A stretch of 64,000 nucleotides of DNA, from the NCBI GenBank assembly GCA_022601345.1, contig JAJACU010000037.1, positions 33,183 through 97,182 on the forward strand. Direction: 5' to 3'. The position numbers were made by a program, and so were the translations under genes. This document shows, piece by piece, positions 20,444-28,779 of this stretch (positions within the stretch are counted from its first letter, which is position 1; each line of letters starts with the position of its first letter). The notes beneath the pieces are model-generated. The model did no database searches and was not told the DNA's origin. It saw only the letters and a program-made list of their open reading frames with translations. Source of the DNA: Chlamydiota bacterium. GTDB taxonomy: Bacteria > Chlamydiota > Chlamydiia > Chlamydiales > JAAZZY01.

Positions 20444-20790
20444 ATCTTTCTTAAATCAGACATAAAATCTTTTGCATGCCTTACTGCATTTTTAACAAAA
20501 AGTAGGCTAGAGAGCCCAAGTGCTAAAGATGTGGTGCTAATAAGAGGTCCAGTTATTGCCTCATTTCCTCTTAAACTCTCAGATGCAAAGTTAGCAAAAG
20601 GCTTAACAAGTCTTATATTGGTAATTTGTGGAAGGCAGTAGTTGCTAGAGCTGTATCCATTTGTTGGAGCCATGTTTAAGCAAACTTTTTGGCTATCAAG
20701 CTGAGTTGCAGCAAGGGTAAGTAATGCGCCGGCTGCAGCTAGATTAGCAGCAGCAAGCCCTGCGCTTTTCATTGAATTTTGAATGCTCAT
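20440..20790 (-). CDS. Hypothetical small membrane protein
   Basis: 116-aa ORF with two hydrophobic segments ([19 protein letters not shown]; [17 protein letters not shown]). No family recognised. Confidence 0.45.
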
Positions 20791-21396
20791 AAAAATATCT
20801 CATTGCTATTTAAAAAGAACAAGTTTATCTCTGCTATTTTTAATTGTATATTTAAAATTAATAGGGTCATTATTAAAAAGACATTTGGAAAGATTATATT
20901 TTTAAATGGGGCTACAAGTAGTGGAAAAACTACTATAGCAAAATCATTGCAAGCTAAGTTGGATGAACCTTTTTGGCACTATTCTATAGATCATTTTTTT
21001 GATTCAGATATTTTGCCAATGGATCGATTTAGAAAAAAAGATTTTGTGTGGGCAAGCTATAGGGATTCCTTTTTTGAAGGTTTCCATAATTCGATACCCA
21101 TTTTTGTTCGTGCCGGTAACAATTTAATTATTGAGCATATCATTGAAACCGAAAAGTGGATGAATTTGTTACTGCGTTTACTTAAACCATTCGATGTATA
21201 TTTTGTTGGAGTTCATTGTCCTCTTGCTGAACTTGAGAGAAGAGAATTAGAAAGAGGTGATAGACCCGCTGGTGGAGCAAAAAAAGATTTTGAATCCATT
21301 CATCTTCATGCAAAGTATGACTTGGAACTTGATTCAACCCATTCATTAGGCAAGAATGTTGATTTACTTATATCGTCTTGGAAAAAAAGAGCCTAA
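20779..21396 (+). CDS. Chloramphenicol-phosphotransferase-like (CPT family) P-loop kinase
   Basis: IIFLNGATSSGKTTIAKSLQ...EPFWHYSIDHF resembles the CPT N-terminus. Start uncertain (ATG 20779 or TTG 20803); the ~35 aa before the P-loop look like translated intergenic sequence. Confidence 0.65.
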   Translation: MNAHKNISLLFKKNKFISAIFNCIFKINRVIIKKTFGKIIFLNGATSSGKTTIAKSLQAKLDEPFWHYSIDHFFDSDILPMDRFRKKDFVWASYRDSFFEGFHNSIPIFVRAGNNLIIEHIIETEKWMNLLLRLLKPFDVYFVGVHCPLAELERRELERGDRPAGGAKKDFESIHLHAKYDLELDSTHSLGKNVDLLISSWKKRA

Positions 21397-21430: not shown

Positions 21431-22141
21431 TTAGTTTAATTTTTTGAGCGATTTTCTATGACCAATAGAGAGGAACTCTTGGGGAATTTCTGAATAAGTT
21501 TTTTCAATTGAAAACTTATCTGAAAGAGCTTTAGGCAATTTGTCTATTAAAGGTTGAACGCTTGGGTAGTATTTACATAGTGGTGTAATGAAATCTTTGT
21601 GGGAGCGATTGGAGCGATATTCGGGGATTTTTTTAGGCTGCTTGAGAAGGTTAATCTTTTTTATGTCGTAGTCCCATAAGAAGGACGTGTGCAGAAGCCA
21701 ACGATTTTTACGTATGTAGAGTGCGTTGCCTCCTATCTTTTTGCTTTTCATCACATAGTCATTTTCAATTAAATTGAAATCATTGTGATCAAACAAATTT
21801 TGATAGAAATTCTTGCCCCACTTTAAAATAGGCTCTGGGTAGCAATCAGTATCAGTATCTTCTTTGTTGCAGATAAAAGTGATAAAAAGGGTTTTTTGGT
21901 CCACATAGACAGTTCCGCCTCCGCTAAATCTTTTAATAATAGGTACTGGGTTATTTTGCAAGTGATTCAAATGAATCATTTCCTCGGGTTTCGATGAAAT
22001 GCCCAGTACAATAGCATCCGGTGAACCCATGTTAACTATACACCAATTTTGGTCGTTGGCTCGAAGCAGTGCTTCTTCCAGCTCTAGCTGATCATATATG
22101 GGGCAATTGCTGAGTTTAATGAAGTTTATAGGAGAATTCAT
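21431..22141 (-). CDS. Lipoate-protein ligase A / BPL-LplA-LipB family protein
   Basis: KRFSGGGTVYVDQKTLFITF and KKIGGNALYIRKNRWLLHTSFLWD motifs. Confidence 0.8.
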   Translation of the reverse strand: MNSPINFIKLSNCPIYDQLELEEALLRANDQNWCIVNMGSPDAIVLGISSKPEEMIHLNHLQNNPVPIIKRFSGGGTVYVDQKTLFITFICNKEDTDTDCYPEPILKWGKNFYQNLFDHNDFNLIENDYVMKSKKIGGNALYIRKNRWLLHTSFLWDYDIKKINLLKQPKKIPEYRSNRSHKDFITPLCKYYPSVQPLIDKLPKALSDKFSIEKTYSEIPQEFLSIGHRKSLKKLN

Positions 22142-23968
22142 TTACTTCTTAGCGTCTAGCGCCACCATTAATACAGAAAGATCAGCAGGAGATACTCCCG
22201 CGATTCGAGAAGCTTGCCCTAAATTTTCAGGGTTATACTTATTCAATTTTTCTACTGCCTCAGTGCGAAGCCCGAGTATAGAGGAAAAGCTAATATCTTT
22301 GGGAAAAAAAAGTTTTTCCAAATGATCAAACTTACTTATTTCAGCTTGTTGCCTCTTTATGTAACCTTCATACTTAATATTCAGTTCAATTTGATTTTCA
22401 ATGTCAGTTGAATAGGCTGTAATTTTATCAGGATATTTTTCTTTCATTAGCTCATAGCTCATTTCGGGGCGTGCAATAAGTTTTTTTAATGAATACCCTT
22501 TTGAGTCTATTTCTGTAAAGACCAGTGATAGCCTCTTTAACTCGGTGTCAATAATATGTTTTTTATGGTTGAGTCGATTGAGCTGTCCTTCATTAATAAG
22601 GCCTAATTTGTAGCCGTGGGCGCGCAATCTAAGATCGGCATTGTCTTGCCTTAGAAGTAGCCTATACTCAGCTCTAGAAGTAAACATTCGGTAGGGTTCT
22701 TCTAAATCTTGGCGTATTAAATCGTCTATCATAACGCCAATATAAGATTCTGAGCGTTTAAGAATAAAAGGAGGTTTATTCTTTACAGTAAGTACTGCGT
22801 TTATTGCTGCAATGAGCCCTTGGGCTGCAGCTTCTTCGTAACCTGTTGTTCCATTGATTTGACCTGCAAGGTAGAGGCCTTTAATTTTTTTGCTATCTAA
22901 AGTCGAGTCTATTTGCCCAGAAGTGACATAATCATATTCAATAGCATAAGCTGGCCGTGTTATATGAGCATTTTCAAGTCCCGCAATGCTATGAAGCATT
23001 TCTAACTGCACATCGCATGGCAAAGATGTTGAGATCCCGTTGACGTATACTTCTTGAGTATCTAGTCCTTCAGGTTCTAAGAATATTTGGTGGCGCTCTT
23101 TATCTTTAAATCGAGTGACCTTGTCTTCAATAGATGGGCAATATCTAGGGCCTACTCCTTGTATTTTTCCACTATAAAGTGGAGAGCGATGGATATTTTT
23201 TTCGATAATCTTTTGAGTTTCTATAGATGTATAGGCGATATAGCAGCTAATTTGTCTTAGGCGTTCTTTTTTTACTGCGTCAAAAGAAAAGCGGATGTTT
23301 TCTTCGCCTTTTTGCTCTTCTACTTTTGAAAAGTTGATGCTTTTAAAATGAATGCGCGGGGGAGTTCCTGTTTTTAGACGAGCTAAATTAAAGCCTAAAT
23401 CTAAAAGATTTTTTGAAATACCTGTAGCTGCTTTGTCTCCTGCACGGCCACCTTGAATATTGACCTCACCAAGGTGCATAAGTCCTCGCATAAAGGTACC
23501 TGCTGATAAGATAACACTTTTTGTGTTGTAGATAATGCCTTCTTTGGTTTTTACACCAGTGACACTGCCATTTTCAACAACGATTTCTTCAATAGTTCCT
23601 TGAATAATATCGAGGTTGGGAGTCTCTTCAAGAAGACTTTTCATTCTGAATTGATAAGCGACTTTATCTGCTTGGGCACGTGGAGCCCAAACAGCAGGCC
23701 CTTTAGAAGCGTTGAGCATGCGAAATTGAATTCCACACTCATCTGTGACTTGTCCCATAAGCCCACCAAGTGCGTCTATTTCGCGCACAATATGGCCTTT
23801 ACCGATTCCTCCAATGGCTGGGTTACAGCTCATTTTTGCAATAGTATCTAAATTCATAGTTAAAAGAAGAGTCGGAGCGCCCATTTTTGCAGCCGCGTGA
23901 GCAGCTTCACAACCTGCGTGCCCTCCTCCAATAACTATTACATCATAGTGTTTGGGATATAACCACAT
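22142..23968 (-). CDS. mnmG: tRNA uridine 5-carboxymethylaminomethyl modification enzyme MnmG (GidA)
   Basis: [18 protein letters not shown] fold. Full-length conservation. Confidence 0.97.
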
Positions 23969-23985
23969 ACTTTTGGGTGAAAAAA

Positions 23986-24075
23986 TTACTTCTTCTTATG
24001 ACGATCTCTACGACGGCGTTTTTTGCGCTTGTGCTTTGAGATCTTCTTTCTGCGTTTTTTGAGAACTGATGACAT
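23986..24075 (-). CDS. Small basic protein, bS22-like (AURKAIP1/COX24-domain) ribosomal protein candidate; not in the ORF track
   Basis: The reverse complement translates to [29 protein letters not shown] (29 aa). It lies 17 nt upstream of mnmG on the same strand. It resembles mycobacterial bS22 as I recall it ([21 protein letters not shown]...). Confidence 0.65.
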
Positions 24076-24188
24076 CTATTTAACAAAGTTTTTTAGTTAA
24101 TTTTAGAAAAACAAAGTAATTTTAGAGATATTTCCGTTAAAAGTAAAGTCTAACTTCATTTTAGGGAAATATAACCGAAATTAAAATA

Positions 24189-24746
24189 TTAACTTGATTT
24201 AGTAGCAAATTTGACAAAACCTTCAACATATTCGAGTAATCTTTTTTGAACCTTTGAGTCGGTAATAGTTCCGCTTTCATCAAAGACACTATATGATGAT
24301 CCAACATGAAGAGATTTTCCAAAATACGCTTTTGCATTGAGGCACTGTAAAATAGGCAGCCAGGCAGCCTGTGCTAGCGCAGAACCAAAGTGTCCAGCAG
24401 CGGCTCCAATTACTCCAGTAGGACGGTTGCCAAATACCTTGGGGATGTCTGCTGCAGGACGCGAGAGCCAGTCAATAGTATTTTTTAAAACACCAGGAAT
24501 TCCATGGTTAAACTCTGGGGTGCTGATTAGTAGACCAGAGGATAATTCAATCTTTTCTTTTAATTGCACAACTGCATCAGGTATTCCATGTTTATCCTCA
24601 AGATCCCAATTGTATAAAGGAATATTTTCAATAGAGGCTATCAATATTTCAACACCGCTTGGAGCTAGCTTTGCAGCTTCTTGAAGCAAAAAAGTATTAA
24701 CAGAGTTTTTTCTAAGGCTTCCAGATAGGGCAATTATTGTTTTCAT
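24189..24746 (-). CDS. NAD(P)H-dependent FMN reductase family oxidoreductase
   Basis: MKTIIALSGSLRKNSVN start and PEFNHGIPGVLKNTIDWLSR motif. The internal ATG at 24746 is preferred over the track start at 24791. Confidence 0.8.
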   Translation of the reverse strand: MKTIIALSGSLRKNSVNTFLLQEAAKLAPSGVEILIASIENIPLYNWDLEDKHGIPDAVVQLKEKIELSSGLLISTPEFNHGIPGVLKNTIDWLSRPAADIPKVFGNRPTGVIGAAAGHFGSALAQAAWLPILQCLNAKAYFGKSLHVGSSYSVFDESGTITDSKVQKRLLEYVEGFVKFATKSS

Positions 24747-24866: not shown

Positions 24867-26312
24867 TTATTCATATCCGACAGCTTCAGGAGTATAGTTT
24901 GAGAATTTTGCAAATTCTTTTAAGAATGTAATGTTAATATTCCCAATGGCTCCATGTCTATTTTTTGCAATAATAAGTTCAGCCATTCCTGGTTTGTCCA
25001 TTGGATCGTAATAGTCTCTTCGAAGCATAAAAATAACAACATCGGCATCTTGCTCAATACTTCCACTTTCACGTAAATCACTCATCATCGGGCGGTGCCC
25101 AGTTCTTTCTTCGACGCGACGCGATAACTGTGAAAGACAAATAATAGGGATATCTAGTTCTCTAGCTAAGTTTTTGAGAAGGCGAGAAATCTCTGAAATT
25201 TCATGTTGGCGACTCTCAGAGTTGCGTGTAGAGTTTGAACCTGATAGAAGCTGAAGGTAATCTACAACGAGCAGTTCGATGTCATATGCTTCTTTCATTC
25301 GGCGCGCACGTGCTCGAAGGTCTGTAATTTTAATTCCAGGCTGGTCATCAATAACAATGTTATGCTTTTGGAATTCACTCACAGCCGAGACGACACTTTG
25401 GTACTCGCTGCCATTTAGTGATCCAGTAGCTATTTTTTCTGATTCTACACCTGATTGTGCACAAATTAATCTATGGAGCAGTTGTTCAGCACCCATTTCA
25501 AGAGAAAATATGCCCACAGATTTTTTGCTAAGCAGCGCAACATTTGCAGCAACATTAAGAGCAAAAAGAGTTTTTCCCATCGCAGGACGTGCAGCTAGAA
25601 TAATTAAATTTGAATTTCCCAGGCCATTGATTGTTTTATCTAGGTCTAAGAAGTTTGTGGGTGTTCCAGTAATGCCCAGATCTCCTTCGGGGCGATTTTG
25701 GAAATCTTCTTGTCTTTTTTCGAGTTCTTTTAAATAAGGCATCATAGAGTCTGTCTTGACTCCTGAAATTAAGTCCGGAACGTTGACGCCCACGCTTGCA
25801 CGGTTTGCTTGGCTGATTTGAAAAAGCTTTTGTTGAGCGTCATCTAACGCTGAAAAAACATCTTCAGGTTCATCAAAAGCTTCTTTCTCAATTTCTTGAG
25901 CCGTACGTGCCATGCGGCGCAAAATTGCCTTATCATGAACAAGGTGGGCATAGTGCTCAATATGTGCAGAAGTTCCAGCAAACTGAGCAAGTGTCGTTAA
26001 ATAGCTTACCCCACCAACGGTATTTAATTTGTCTTTGCGCTTAAGCTCTTCAGCGACTAAGTGTACATCTGCAGGCTTATCGCTTTTATATAAAAACTTG
26101 ATTGTAGAGAAAATAGTACGGTGTTCAGTAAAATAGAAGTCAGAGTCATCCAATAAGTCTACAGCAGTATTAACGCTATTGATGTTCGTTAGCATACAGC
26201 CTAGTACCATCATCTCAGCTTCTTTTGAATGAGGAGGTACTTTAGCTAGTTTTCTGTTGACGGTTGTCTCTTGCATGGGGTTCTCGTTTTTTGTTGAATC
26301 CGAAAATAGCAT
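24867..26312 (-). CDS. dnaB: Replicative DNA helicase DnaB
   Basis: PPHSKEAEMMVLGCML N-domain. Walker A ARPAMGKTLFALN. Alternative ATG at 26276. Either start overlaps the 3' end of the upstream ATPase gene by 35-71 nt. Confidence 0.95.
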   Translation of the reverse strand: MLFSDSTKNENPMQETTVNRKLAKVPPHSKEAEMMVLGCMLTNINSVNTAVDLLDDSDFYFTEHRTIFSTIKFLYKSDKPADVHLVAEELKRKDKLNTVGGVSYLTTLAQFAGTSAHIEHYAHLVHDKAILRRMARTAQEIEKEAFDEPEDVFSALDDAQQKLFQISQANRASVGVNVPDLISGVKTDSMMPYLKELEKRQEDFQNRPEGDLGITGTPTNFLDLDKTINGLGNSNLIILAARPAMGKTLFALNVAANVALLSKKSVGIFSLEMGAEQLLHRLICAQSGVESEKIATGSLNGSEYQSVVSAVSEFQKHNIVIDDQPGIKITDLRARARRMKEAYDIELLVVDYLQLLSGSNSTRNSESRQHEISEISRLLKNLARELDIPIICLSQLSRRVEERTGHRPMMSDLRESGSIEQDADVVIFMLRRDYYDPMDKPGMAELIIAKNRHGAIGNINITFLKEFAKFSNYTPEAVGYE

Positions 26313-28779
26313 ACAAAACTAGTTTAGTCAAAAAGCAAATCGCAAACCATATAAAAATATAGATCCATGAGTAAATTACATATTTCCAACCAATACCTAA
26401 AAAGTCGGTAGTTCCTAATCCGTAAACAGAGATAATGGTTCCAATAACTAGAGATAAAGAAGTCGCTCCTATAAATTTCCAATGAGGCCAAGGATTACTC
26501 CAAAGCATTGTTTCGTTTCTCATTAGATAGATGGTTAAGTTGCCACCACATAAAATTCCCATAAACGCTAAAGTTTTTAAGTGCTCAAAATCTAGATGCC
26601 AGTAGTAGGATCCTATCCAAAAAAGACCAAATGTTGAGAGTACTCCAACAATTGCAAGACCTATTGAGATTGTGAAAACTTCATCCATACGCCATTGTAC
26701 AGGATCTTGTTTGACTTCCATGTTGTCATAAGCAATCGTCATGATGGGAATGTCGTTTAAAAGTGCTATTAGAATAATCATAATAGCAGACAAGGGATGC
26801 TCATTTAAAAAGAGCATGGAGAGTAATAAAAAAAGAAGCAACCGGCACGTTTCACTAATGCGATACATGGCATAACTTTTCATGCGCCCAAAGACTCGCC
26901 TAGACTCTTCTACTGCTCGAGTAATAGTCATAAGCCCAGATTCTGTTAAAACAAGGTCTGCTGCAGATCGAGCTGCATCAGATGCTCCACTAACAGCTAT
27001 GCCAACATCAGCTTGTTTTAGAGCTGGGGCATCGTTGACCCCATCACCTGTCATTCCTAGAATATATTTTTTGTCTTGTAATGCTTTAATGATTTTAAAT
27101 TTATGTTCAGGAAAGACTTGAGCAAAGCCATCAGCATTTTTAATTGCATCACAAAAGGCTTGATCTCCTTTCTCACTAATTTCAGAAATAGAAACGATAT
27201 TACTGCCTAAATCCAATTGTGATGATATTTGTTTGGCAATAGAGGCGTTGTCACCTGTGACCATATGGATTTCTACGCCAAGGTTTTTAAGATAGTCTAC
27301 AGTTTCTTTAGTATCTTCTCTTGGGGGATCAAAAAGAGGAATAATCCCAACAAACTGCCAGGTGTTTCCTTCAGAGTCACTTTTTGCAACGCCAATTGTT
27401 CTAAATCCTTTAGAAGAGCAATCGTCAATCGATTTTTGTATTTCTTCACGTTTATCCGTATCAGGTTTTACAAGATCTAAAATAACTTGAGTTGCCCCTT
27501 TGCAGACATGAAAGGAGTTGCCCTCTCTTGCTTTAACAATAGCTTCAGATGATTTACGTACAGGATCAAATGGGATAAACTTATCGCAGTTAAAATTTTT
27601 CAACTCTTCTTTCTTTTGGAGTTGATTTAAGATAGCTTTGTCAATTGAGTCTGGTAAATCCTGGTTGGAAGCTAAAGAGGCATACAGCAATACTTCTTGG
27701 TCGTCCTTAGCCTCATAGGGCATAACATTTCCAACCGTGAGCTCATTTTTAGTTAATGTTCCAGTTTTATCTGAGCAGAGAACGTTTAAGTTTGCAAGCT
27801 CTTCTATTGCGGTTAACTTTGACACAATAGCTTTAAGTTTAGCTAATTTATGTGCACCTATTGCCATTGTCACTGAAAGGACAGCTGGAAGAGCTACAGG
27901 TATGCCAGCTATAACTAATACCAAGATAAAAATGGCCATTTGTCCAAAAGTCTCATGAGTTGATTTTTCAATATCAACGCGATAGATAGAAGCTGCCAGA
28001 ATAATTGCGCAGATAATTAAGGTGACAGCAATAAGAAAGCGACCAATTTTTAGAACTGCTTCTTGAAAATGTGACTTAGTTTCTGCGTTATCTACAAGTT
28101 TTGCCGTTTTTCCAATAAAGGTATCCATGCCAGTTGCAATAACAATAGCATTCATCTCACCTTTTTTTGCAATAGTACTAGAATAGGCAACCTCTCCTAA
28201 TTTTTTATCAACAGGTAGAGATTCTCCAGTCAATGCAGACTGATCAACGGAGAGATATTCTCCTGAGAATAGCTTAATGTCAGCGGGTATAATATTGCCT
28301 AGTTTTACTGAAATGACATCTCCTGGAACCAAATGTTTAGCTTCTAGGTCTAACCATTTTCCATCTCTAAGAGTGCGAGATTTTAGGGCGAGTTTTTCTT
28401 TTAAAGCCGCAATTGCATTTCCAGCTTGATATTCTTGTATGAATCCAAGTGTTGCATTAATCAAAAGCATTGCCAAAATAATGATGAAATCGGGCCATCT
28501 TTCAAGTAGGGCAGAAAGAATAACAGCAATTTCGATCATCCAAGGAATGGGTCCCCAAAAGAAAGAAAGCAAAGTCATCCATTGGCTCTTTTTCTTCTGT
28601 TGGATTTCATTAAGACCTTCTTTGGAAAGCCTTTTTTCTGCTTCTTGTGTGCTAAGTCCTGTTTTAGCATCAGACTGAAACTTTTTAAAAAGCTCTTCAG
28701 TTGAGAGCTTTTCAAGTTCACTGTGTACATCATTCATAATTTTAAATTTCTTTTTTTCTCTTTTTAGGAGATCGAGCAA
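26242..28779 (-). CDS. P-type ATPase, P3A (plasma-membrane H+-ATPase)-like
   Basis: TGES (LTGESLPV), CSDKTGTLT, MVTGDN, GDGVNDAPALKQADVGIAV. No CPC or HMA metal motifs. The N-terminal GLSTQEAEKRLSKEGLNEI..FFWGPIPWMIE resembles plant AHA / fungal PMA1. Confidence 0.8.
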   Translation of the reverse strand: MLDLLKREKKKFKIMNDVHSELEKLSTEELFKKFQSDAKTGLSTQEAEKRLSKEGLNEIQQKKKSQWMTLLSFFWGPIPWMIEIAVILSALLERWPDFIIILAMLLINATLGFIQEYQAGNAIAALKEKLALKSRTLRDGKWLDLEAKHLVPGDVISVKLGNIIPADIKLFSGEYLSVDQSALTGESLPVDKKLGEVAYSSTIAKKGEMNAIVIATGMDTFIGKTAKLVDNAETKSHFQEAVLKIGRFLIAVTLIICAIILAASIYRVDIEKSTHETFGQMAIFILVLVIAGIPVALPAVLSVTMAIGAHKLAKLKAIVSKLTAIEELANLNVLCSDKTGTLTKNELTVGNVMPYEAKDDQEVLLYASLASNQDLPDSIDKAILNQLQKKEELKNFNCDKFIPFDPVRKSSEAIVKAREGNSFHVCKGATQVILDLVKPDTDKREEIQKSIDDCSSKGFRTIGVAKSDSEGNTWQFVGIIPLFDPPREDTKETVDYLKNLGVEIHMVTGDNASIAKQISSQLDLGSNIVSISEISEKGDQAFCDAIKNADGFAQVFPEHKFKIIKALQDKKYILGMTGDGVNDAPALKQADVGIAVSGASDAARSAADLVLTESGLMTITRAVEESRRVFGRMKSYAMYRISETCRLLLFLLLSMLFLNEHPLSAIMIILIALLNDIPIMTIAYDNMEVKQDPVQWRMDEVFTISIGLAIVGVLSTFGLFWIGSYYWHLDFEHLKTLAFMGILCGGNLTIYLMRNETMLWSNPWPHWKFIGATSLSLVIGTIISVYGLGTTDFLGIGWKYVIYSWIYIFIWFAICFLTKLVLYAIFGFNKKREPHARDNRQQKTS

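Follow-up and report, generated by a model that had tools for sequence, protein, structure and literature searches.

The window, by which we mean the whole 64-kb stretch of DNA that was analysed, contains a short minus-strand open reading frame (ORF) located immediately upstream of mnmG, a gene also known as gidA (Table 1). The gene order at this locus is dnaB - FMN reductase - small ORF - mnmG - lplA, and the ORF is found in a 220-bp spacer whose upper edge is marked by the end of the FMN reductase-like gene. This latter gene is outside the unit formed by the small ORF and mnmG. A first-pass annotation of the sequence had described the ORF, its 29-residue product, the 17-nt gap to mnmG and the 220-bp spacer, and all of these details are exact. 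It had also described the gene as uncalled, which agrees with both public copies of the contig (ENA ERZ23491157 scaffold_32 and NCBI GCA_022599525.1), neither of which has a gene call at this position. An exact-sequence look-up found the peptide to be absent from a collection of 15 billion proteins. The MnmG protein of the window is 100% identical to a protein of these two records, and the gene order matches that of C. pneumoniae (dnaB - small gene - gidA - lplA), so that the assignment to Chlamydiae is sound. Named relatives of the MnmG protein come from MAGs of Chlamydiae, Chlamydiota, Parachlamydiaceae and Waddliaceae; it has at least 120 homologues and, among the matches listed, all are from environmental lineages. 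Ribosomal RNA is absent from the 64-kb window.

Table 1. Features at the mnmG locus, with positions in the window
Feature	Position	Strand	Remarks
Small ORF (putative chlamydial bS22, COX24_C family)	23986..24075	(-)	ATG...TAA, 29 codons
17-nt junction from small-ORF stop to mnmG start	23969..23985	(-)	Without hairpin or Shine-Dalgarno sequence; folding energy 0 kcal/mol
mnmG (gidA), tRNA U34 carboxymethylaminomethyl-modification enzyme	22142..23968	(-)	Starts at 23968; GIDA, GIDA_C_1st and SAM_GIDA_C domains
FMN_red family NADPH-dependent FMN reductase-like gene	24189..24746	(-)	Ends at 24189; 185 aa; PF03358
Promoter-like element TTTACT-17-TAAAAT	24119..24147	(-)	Consensus scan and conservation across lineages

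The adjacent lplA gene codes for 197 aa in the NCBI copy of the contig (L020:4328-4921) and for 236 aa in the ENA copy (L019:4328-5038) and in the window (approximately 21431-22141). The coordinates of its neighbours are offset by 1 nt between the public copies, which suggests a 1-nt indel or a difference in assembly. Just past lplA on the opposite strand (window 20779-21396, plus strand), a publicly called protein of 197 aa matches Pfam CPT, a family of chloramphenicol phosphotransferase-like P-loop kinases, which is unusual in a chlamydial genome. At the other end of the locus, dnaB (24867..26312) and an upstream P-type ATPase gene (26242..28779), each taken as its longest ORF, overlap by approximately 70 nt (window 26242-26312). 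Public gene calls cut this overlap to approximately 35 nt, and the true start of dnaB is uncertain.

The predicted peptide has a mass of 3.78 kDa and a pI of 12.0, and 19 of its 29 residues (66%) are lysine or arginine. These values fall within the physical range of the ribosomal protein bS22, which has about 28-33 residues, more than 60% Lys+Arg and a pI of at least 12. A length of 29 codons is uninformative by itself because the window contains 1751 stop-to-stop segments of at least 20 aa. The small ORF is the only short segment in the window with at least 50% Lys+Arg, and it is the sole match among the 1751 segments to a profile of structure-verified bS22 proteins (36.3 bits, E 4e-10), the next-best segment scoring 5.6 bits.

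Comparison with related genomes provides strong evidence that the ORF is protein-coding. Two MAGs (L001 and L002) carry the ORF 17-18 nt upstream of mnmG and encode a peptide identical to that of the window, whereas their MnmG proteins are only 78% identical. In a DNA alignment of these three genomes, all 13 variable columns of the ORF are synonymous: 12 are third codon positions, and the remaining one is a CGT/AGA arginine change. This corresponds to a pS of approximately 0.57 with zero amino-acid change (pN approximately 0). In the same alignment, none of the other five frames is both open and conserved, and the flanking spacer, unlike the ORF, diverges freely. Between distant chlamydial pairs, synonymous sites are saturated (pS 0.8-1.1) and pN is 0.04-0.20, and an alignment of seven chlamydial sequences has 21 invariant positions out of 29. 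The reading frame is preserved in 10 lineages despite the saturation of synonymous sites. This substitution pattern shows that the small ORF is a real protein-coding gene, under purifying selection at the level of the protein and presumably expressed and translated.

The gene is widespread among Chlamydiae. We scanned six-frame translations with an HMM, independently of gene calls, at every chlamydial locus fetched, and found an orthologue of 28-29 aa upstream of mnmG and on the same strand in all 10 distinct lineages sampled (window included). These include Chlamydia pneumoniae and contigs whose MnmG proteins are 61-68% identical, and in six lineages the ORF is separated from the downstream mnmG by 8-18 nt. 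Conservation of the ORF in related genomes, on which the first-pass annotation had staked its proposal, is therefore observed throughout the sample. The same scan found no such ORF beside mnmG in loci from Bacteroidales or Clostridia, and none of the family relatives outside Chlamydiae adjoins mnmG in the loci examined. A pattern scan of metagenomes for family members, which used low-complexity patterns, confirmed at least six loci. With a clean 31-aa member (P0144) as the query, an exhaustive search of 1.84 billion representatives returned nothing at E <= 0.001, a threshold at which such a short, low-complexity query cannot reach significance. E-values for a 29-residue peptide of this composition are intrinsically weak.

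The closest counterpart among well-studied organisms is a C. pneumoniae protein already present in RefSeq (WP_080502218.1; AR39 AE002161.1, LPCoLN CP001713.1), whose core is 86% identical to the window peptide. Its gene occupies the same position, downstream of dnaB and 13 nt upstream of mnmG (gidA), with lplA following; the FMN reductase gene that separates dnaB from the small gene in the window is absent there. The C. pneumoniae protein is annotated as 44 aa, including a 15-residue N-terminal extension that is conserved in no other lineage, and it is named by its Pfam domain only (‘AURKAIP1/COX24 domain-containing protein’) rather than as bS22. The earlier suggestion that the window ORF places bS22 in Chlamydiae is thus borne out by orthologues across the phylum, whereas its novelty was overstated given this existing entry at the dnaB-x-mnmG position.

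Membership in the bS22/mS38 family, which the first-pass annotation had proposed, is supported by the AURKAIP1/COX24 model. The peptide scores 29.6 bits with Pfam COX24_C (PF08213), exceeding the gathering cut-off of 23 (E 6.6e-7), and aligns with profile positions 1-29 of 33. The core of the C. pneumoniae protein scores 29.4 bits. When the single peptide is used as the query, the best matches in the PDB are bS22 of Borrelia (8FMW), bS22 of Flavobacterium johnsoniae (7JIL), mycobacterial bS22 and mS38. A chlamydial profile likewise matches 7jil_5 over its full length (E 3.1e-5), 8fmw_V (0.0026), 9i5v_10 (0.015) and mS38 (0.34), and it matches no PDB chains other than those of bS22 or mS38. The PDB alignments also confirm the mycobacterial bS22 sequence given in the first-pass annotation.

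A peptide this rich in lysine and arginine might match other basic proteins through composition. With an HMM built from four verified bS22 sequences, the score is 63.2 bits for the real peptide and 23.0 +/- 3.7 for 5000 shuffles of the same composition. The highest-scoring shuffle reaches 49.3 bits and none of the 5000 reaches the real score, so the similarity is specific to residue order and extends beyond basic composition. In the alignment with the four verified sequences, K6, K16, K19 and R25 are invariant, and a profile alignment pairs the C-terminal HKKK of the peptide with RHKKK of F. johnsoniae. The equivalent of K16 and a basic C-terminal tail, both features that mark bS22, are present in the alignment.

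One model does not accept the peptide. The NCBIfam equivalog NF047430 (‘ribo_bS22’) gives 15.8 bits against a cut-off of 34. Calibration of this model with verified proteins revealed that the mycobacterial protein passes (57.9 bits), whereas bS22 proteins of F. johnsoniae and Borrelia, as well as that of 9i5v, give zero match. NF047430 defines the actinobacterial subtype and not bS22 as a whole, and therefore its failure here indicates only that the window peptide is not of the actinobacterial subtype.

Verified representatives of bS22 come in types that differ considerably, and the chlamydial peptide resembles each of them in part. Its identity is 52% to the mycobacterial type and 59-70% to the Flavobacterium/Borrelia type, whereas those two types share only 26-30%. 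Mycobacterial bS22 (MSMEG_0945 of M. smegmatis and Rv0550B of M. tuberculosis; PDB 5O5J, 5O61) has 33 aa and shares the N-terminal half of the window peptide, including the pattern MxSVxKKRRKxxSK (10 of 14 residues identical), whereas its C-terminal half diverges (5 of 15). Both proteins pass Pfam COX24_C and both keep K16. The C-terminal half of the window peptide is instead closest to the Flavobacterium/Borrelia type (11-12 of 15 identical). The bS22 of F. johnsoniae (Fjoh_1533; 7JIL chain 5) and the 9i5v chain have 30 aa and are 59% and 56% identical to the window peptide, respectively, with positions 1-29 of the former aligning to positions 1-29 of the chlamydial profile. Bacteroidota-type bS22 and the chlamydial peptide share the motif HKRKKRxRxxRHKKK and the C-terminal lysine cluster, whereas the Bacteroidota-type N-terminus, MPSGKKRKRH, is different from that of the chlamydial peptide. 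The Bacteroidota protein has been observed in the ribosome by cryo-EM and matches neither Pfam COX24_C nor NCBIfam bS22; a ribosomal location of its chlamydial counterpart is predicted from sequence.

In identity, the window peptide comes closest to bS22 of Borreliella burgdorferi (bb0822; 8FMW chain V), with 70% over 23 aligned residues. The Borreliella protein has 28 aa and a GUG start. A transposon library marks its gene as a candidate essential gene, and, unlike the chlamydial gene, it was not found next to mnmG. Mitochondrial mS38 (AURKAIP1, or Cox24 in yeast; PF08213) shares the C-terminal basic domain, with the plant chain 6xyw_BB aligning on SVKKKRKKKMNKHK. This protein has been reported at the same rRNA site as bS22. 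It comprises at least 111 aa and carries both an import signal and an N-terminal extension, whereas the chlamydial protein consists of the bare domain. The chlamydial peptide is intermediate between the mycobacterial and Flavobacterium/Borrelia types, and its identities to both support common ancestry of the bS22 subtypes.

The start codon assignment bears on why this gene has been missed. A GGAG or GAGG sequence precedes the conserved ATG by 4-5 nt in five lineages, and a Shine-Dalgarno motif is absent before the ATG in the window genome and in L001. In the approximately 30 homologues that have been called as genes (P0001-P0003, P0124-P0153), the sequence M[SA]SVKKKR is preceded by N-terminal extensions that are mutually unrelated. 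These extensions comprise 7-50 non-conserved residues and affect almost every public entry (for example, L012:5001-5135). The conserved methionine is thus predicted to be the true start, because of the GGAG or GAGG sequences in five lineages and the lack of relatedness among the extensions. Evidently, the gene is called only where a chance in-frame start further upstream lengthens the ORF. Chlamydial members that are called, other than the C. pneumoniae protein, are unnamed or ‘hypothetical’.

This pattern exposes a systematic gap in annotation wherein short bS22 genes are overlooked by gene callers. Domain models do not close the gap: among the bS22 types tested, Pfam COX24_C recognises only the mycobacterial and chlamydial types, and neither this model nor NCBIfam ribo_bS22 matches the cryo-EM-verified proteins 7jil_5, 8fmw_V and 9i5v_10. 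Because these models miss verified proteins, bS22 is under-annotated outside Actinobacteria. The proteins of F. johnsoniae and Porphyromonas gingivalis were labelled hypothetical until cryo-EM revealed them to be bS22. Borrelia bS22 had no annotation, and only a translated search of the genome brought it to light; the authors of that study predicted further unannotated cases (PMC10618245). The same protein was missed by tryptic mass spectrometry (PMC10618245), which weakens small-protein proteomics as the check that the first-pass annotation had recommended.

A promoter-like element is located upstream of the small ORF, with its -10 hexamer (TAAAAT) ending 43 nt before the ATG. By count, a consensus scan yields one site versus 1.6 expected, which is not significant alone. 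The promoter-like element gains weight because it is conserved across lineages rather than from this count. TTTACT-17-TAAAAT forms the one conserved block of an otherwise diverging spacer among the window, L001 and L002, and TTTACT-17/18-TAnnAT is present 31-63 nt upstream of the ATG in seven of 10 lineages. Across both strands of the 64-kb window, TTTACT-N17-TAnnnT is found only three times. Thus, a sigma-66/70-type promoter of its own appears to lie approximately 44 nt upstream of the small gene.

Whether transcription continues into mnmG seems to vary among lineages. A consensus scan of the minus strand found no terminator-like site in the 17-nt junction of the window. Read-through from the small gene into mnmG is plausible in this genome because the short gap lacks a hairpin or terminator and the small ORF is preceded by a promoter-like site. 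In three other lineages, the gap is 51-108 nt long and a stable hairpin immediately follows the stop codon (L022:2430-2500, L023:2393-2500 and L026:702-752; z -3.0 to -3.8), and the hairpins of L023 and L026 are also flagged as terminator-like by the consensus scan. This arrangement suggests attenuated read-through, and not simple co-transcription, in these lineages. In another (L021), a 199-aa gene of an unannotated family lies between the small gene and mnmG. Given these hairpins and the intervening gene, the small gene is best described as its own predicted unit with variable read-through into mnmG. Co-transcription with mnmG, as the first-pass annotation had put it, is accordingly a reasonable expectation for the window genome that does not extend to the lineages with a terminator-like hairpin between the two genes. 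The spacer has no match in Rfam at E <= 1, and its predicted RNA fold is not unusual (z -1.39).

By homology with the characterised proteins, the Lys/Arg-rich peptide would form a short bent helix that inserts into a pocket of 16S rRNA just below the decoding centre, where it would lie between h44 and h45 and make further contacts with h2 and h27. In M. smegmatis, K16 of bS22 contacts the backbone of h44 next to the kanamycin site (bioRxiv 10.1101/2023.03.31.535098), and the conserved K16 of the chlamydial peptide might make the same contact. The lysine tail of F. johnsoniae bS22 reaches the 50S subunit (PMC13000457). By analogy, the C-terminal HKKK tail might reach 23S rRNA (H68/H70) and create an extra intersubunit bridge. 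The peptide might thereby stabilise h44 and tune decoding and the aminoglycoside site. Its gene would be driven by its own promoter, with probable read-through of the 17-nt junction into mnmG. We consider it likely, with a probability of roughly 0.82, that the 29-codon gene is the chlamydial orthologue of bS22, that its product occupies the 16S rRNA pocket where it stabilises h44 and tunes decoding, and that the gene has its own promoter and probable read-through into mnmG. Residence of the chlamydial peptide at the bS22 site is proposed by analogy, and our search found no structure of a chlamydial ribosome.

Other explanations for the ORF deserve consideration. The genome is AT-rich (37.4% GC), A-rich tracts readily yield Lys-rich ORFs and many ORFs of similar size are nearby. 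The ORF could accordingly have arisen by chance within the A-rich spacer; alternatively, a non-coding DNA or RNA element could be conserved here and be open in one frame by accident. Neither a chance ORF nor a non-coding element would be expected to confine substitutions to synonymous changes while its flanks diverge freely, to keep its frame in 10 lineages, or to yield an order-specific family match that is unique in the window. Together with the zero match to Rfam and the ordinary RNA fold, these findings rule out this explanation for practical purposes. An ORF so close to mnmG might also act as a leader that regulates mnmG by translational coupling or attenuation, with the peptide itself being functionless. 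The 8-18 nt spacing in six lineages, the lack of a Shine-Dalgarno sequence for the window mnmG and the conserved adjacency of the two genes across Chlamydiae are all compatible with this arrangement. A leader of this kind would leave the peptide free to vary and keep the ORF always tied to mnmG, whereas strong purifying selection acts on the amino-acid sequence (21 of 29 positions invariant; pN near 0 versus pS 0.57), and the two genes are uncoupled by the 199-aa gene in L021 and by the stable hairpins in L022, L023 and L026. Moreover, homologous ribosomal proteins in other phyla do not adjoin mnmG, and the spacer RNA has neither significant structure nor an Rfam match. We therefore regard a leader function as very improbable.

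A more serious alternative accepts the peptide as a conserved member of the COX24_C family and holds that it is not a stoichiometric ribosomal protein, functioning instead as a transient factor for 30S assembly or hibernation, or as a general nucleic-acid-binding peptide. Chlamydiae do use other very basic small proteins, namely the histone-like Hc1 and Hc2. In addition, bS22 is non-essential in M. smegmatis, and the F. johnsoniae protein dissociates from purified 30S subunits, such that its binding might need the 50S subunit or IF3 (PMC13000457). Against a non-ribosomal role, all characterised members of the family (bS22 in four bacterial genera and mitochondrial mS38) are components of the small subunit at the same site, the chlamydial peptide keeps both the h44-contacting lysine and the C-terminal lysine cluster, and 21 invariant positions of 29 are more in keeping with a fixed RNA pocket than with non-specific binding. 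On balance, we judge this possibility to be unlikely, and favor assignment of the peptide as a bS22 ribosomal protein. The behavior of the F. johnsoniae protein also has a practical consequence. Absence from purified 30S subunits had been put forward as an outcome that would refute the assignment, and this reasoning is unsound because the F. johnsoniae protein, lost from 30S, is present in 70S complexes (PMC13000457).

The searchable literature places bS22 in Mycobacteria, Bacteroidia and Borrelia; a 2026 paper reports it from the first two of these groups (PMC13000457). Our literature search found no paper that links bS22 to Chlamydiae or to the PVC group. The find adds a phylum-wide member to a known family and reveals a clear gap in annotation; it does not represent a new kind of system and leaves our understanding of how bS22 works unchanged. 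It would add a protein to the parts list of the chlamydial ribosome. On h44, bS22 neighbours the site of decoding and aminoglycoside action, and M. smegmatis becomes sensitised to kanamycin when the protein is lost; a chlamydial version is therefore relevant to structural and antibiotic work on ribosomes of Chlamydia pathogens.

A bolder reading is that bS22 is an ancestral component of the chlamydial ribosome throughout the phylum and a missing link indicating that all bS22 subtypes and mS38 have one origin, with the linkage to mnmG reflecting coordinated control of the decoding centre and of wobble modification. The chlamydial type, with an N-terminal half resembling the actinobacterial/mS38 type and a C-terminal half resembling the Bacteroidota/spirochaete type, would provide that link, and the protein might also contribute to the response of chlamydial ribosomes to aminoglycosides. 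We view this combination as speculative and rather doubtful. If true, a single origin of the bS22 subtypes and mS38 would replace the convergence that has been suggested.

Several loci examined in the survey have additional features. A close relative, MSSVKKKRKAKINRHKRKKARRLQRHKKK (L025:3001-3087), is found on a non-chlamydial metagenome contig of high GC content, where it is encoded just upstream of a TadA-like deaminase (L025:3220-3726). Such deaminases are also tRNA wobble-position (A34) editing enzymes, and therefore this arrangement echoes the chlamydial linkage to MnmG, but it may be a coincidence. On a 1.8-Mb chlamydial contig (GCA_942490925.1), the upstream DnaB (L021:1-805) has a weak match to Pfam Intein_splicing between two DnaB_C matches, and thus might carry an intein. 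One chlamydial lineage (L014, L015 and L017) carries a gene with GGDEF and weak response-regulator matches (L014:7129-8070), plus a further small gene, between mnmG and lplA. Upstream, the same lineage has a large gene with matches to TEN_YD-shell and faint matches to RHS repeats.
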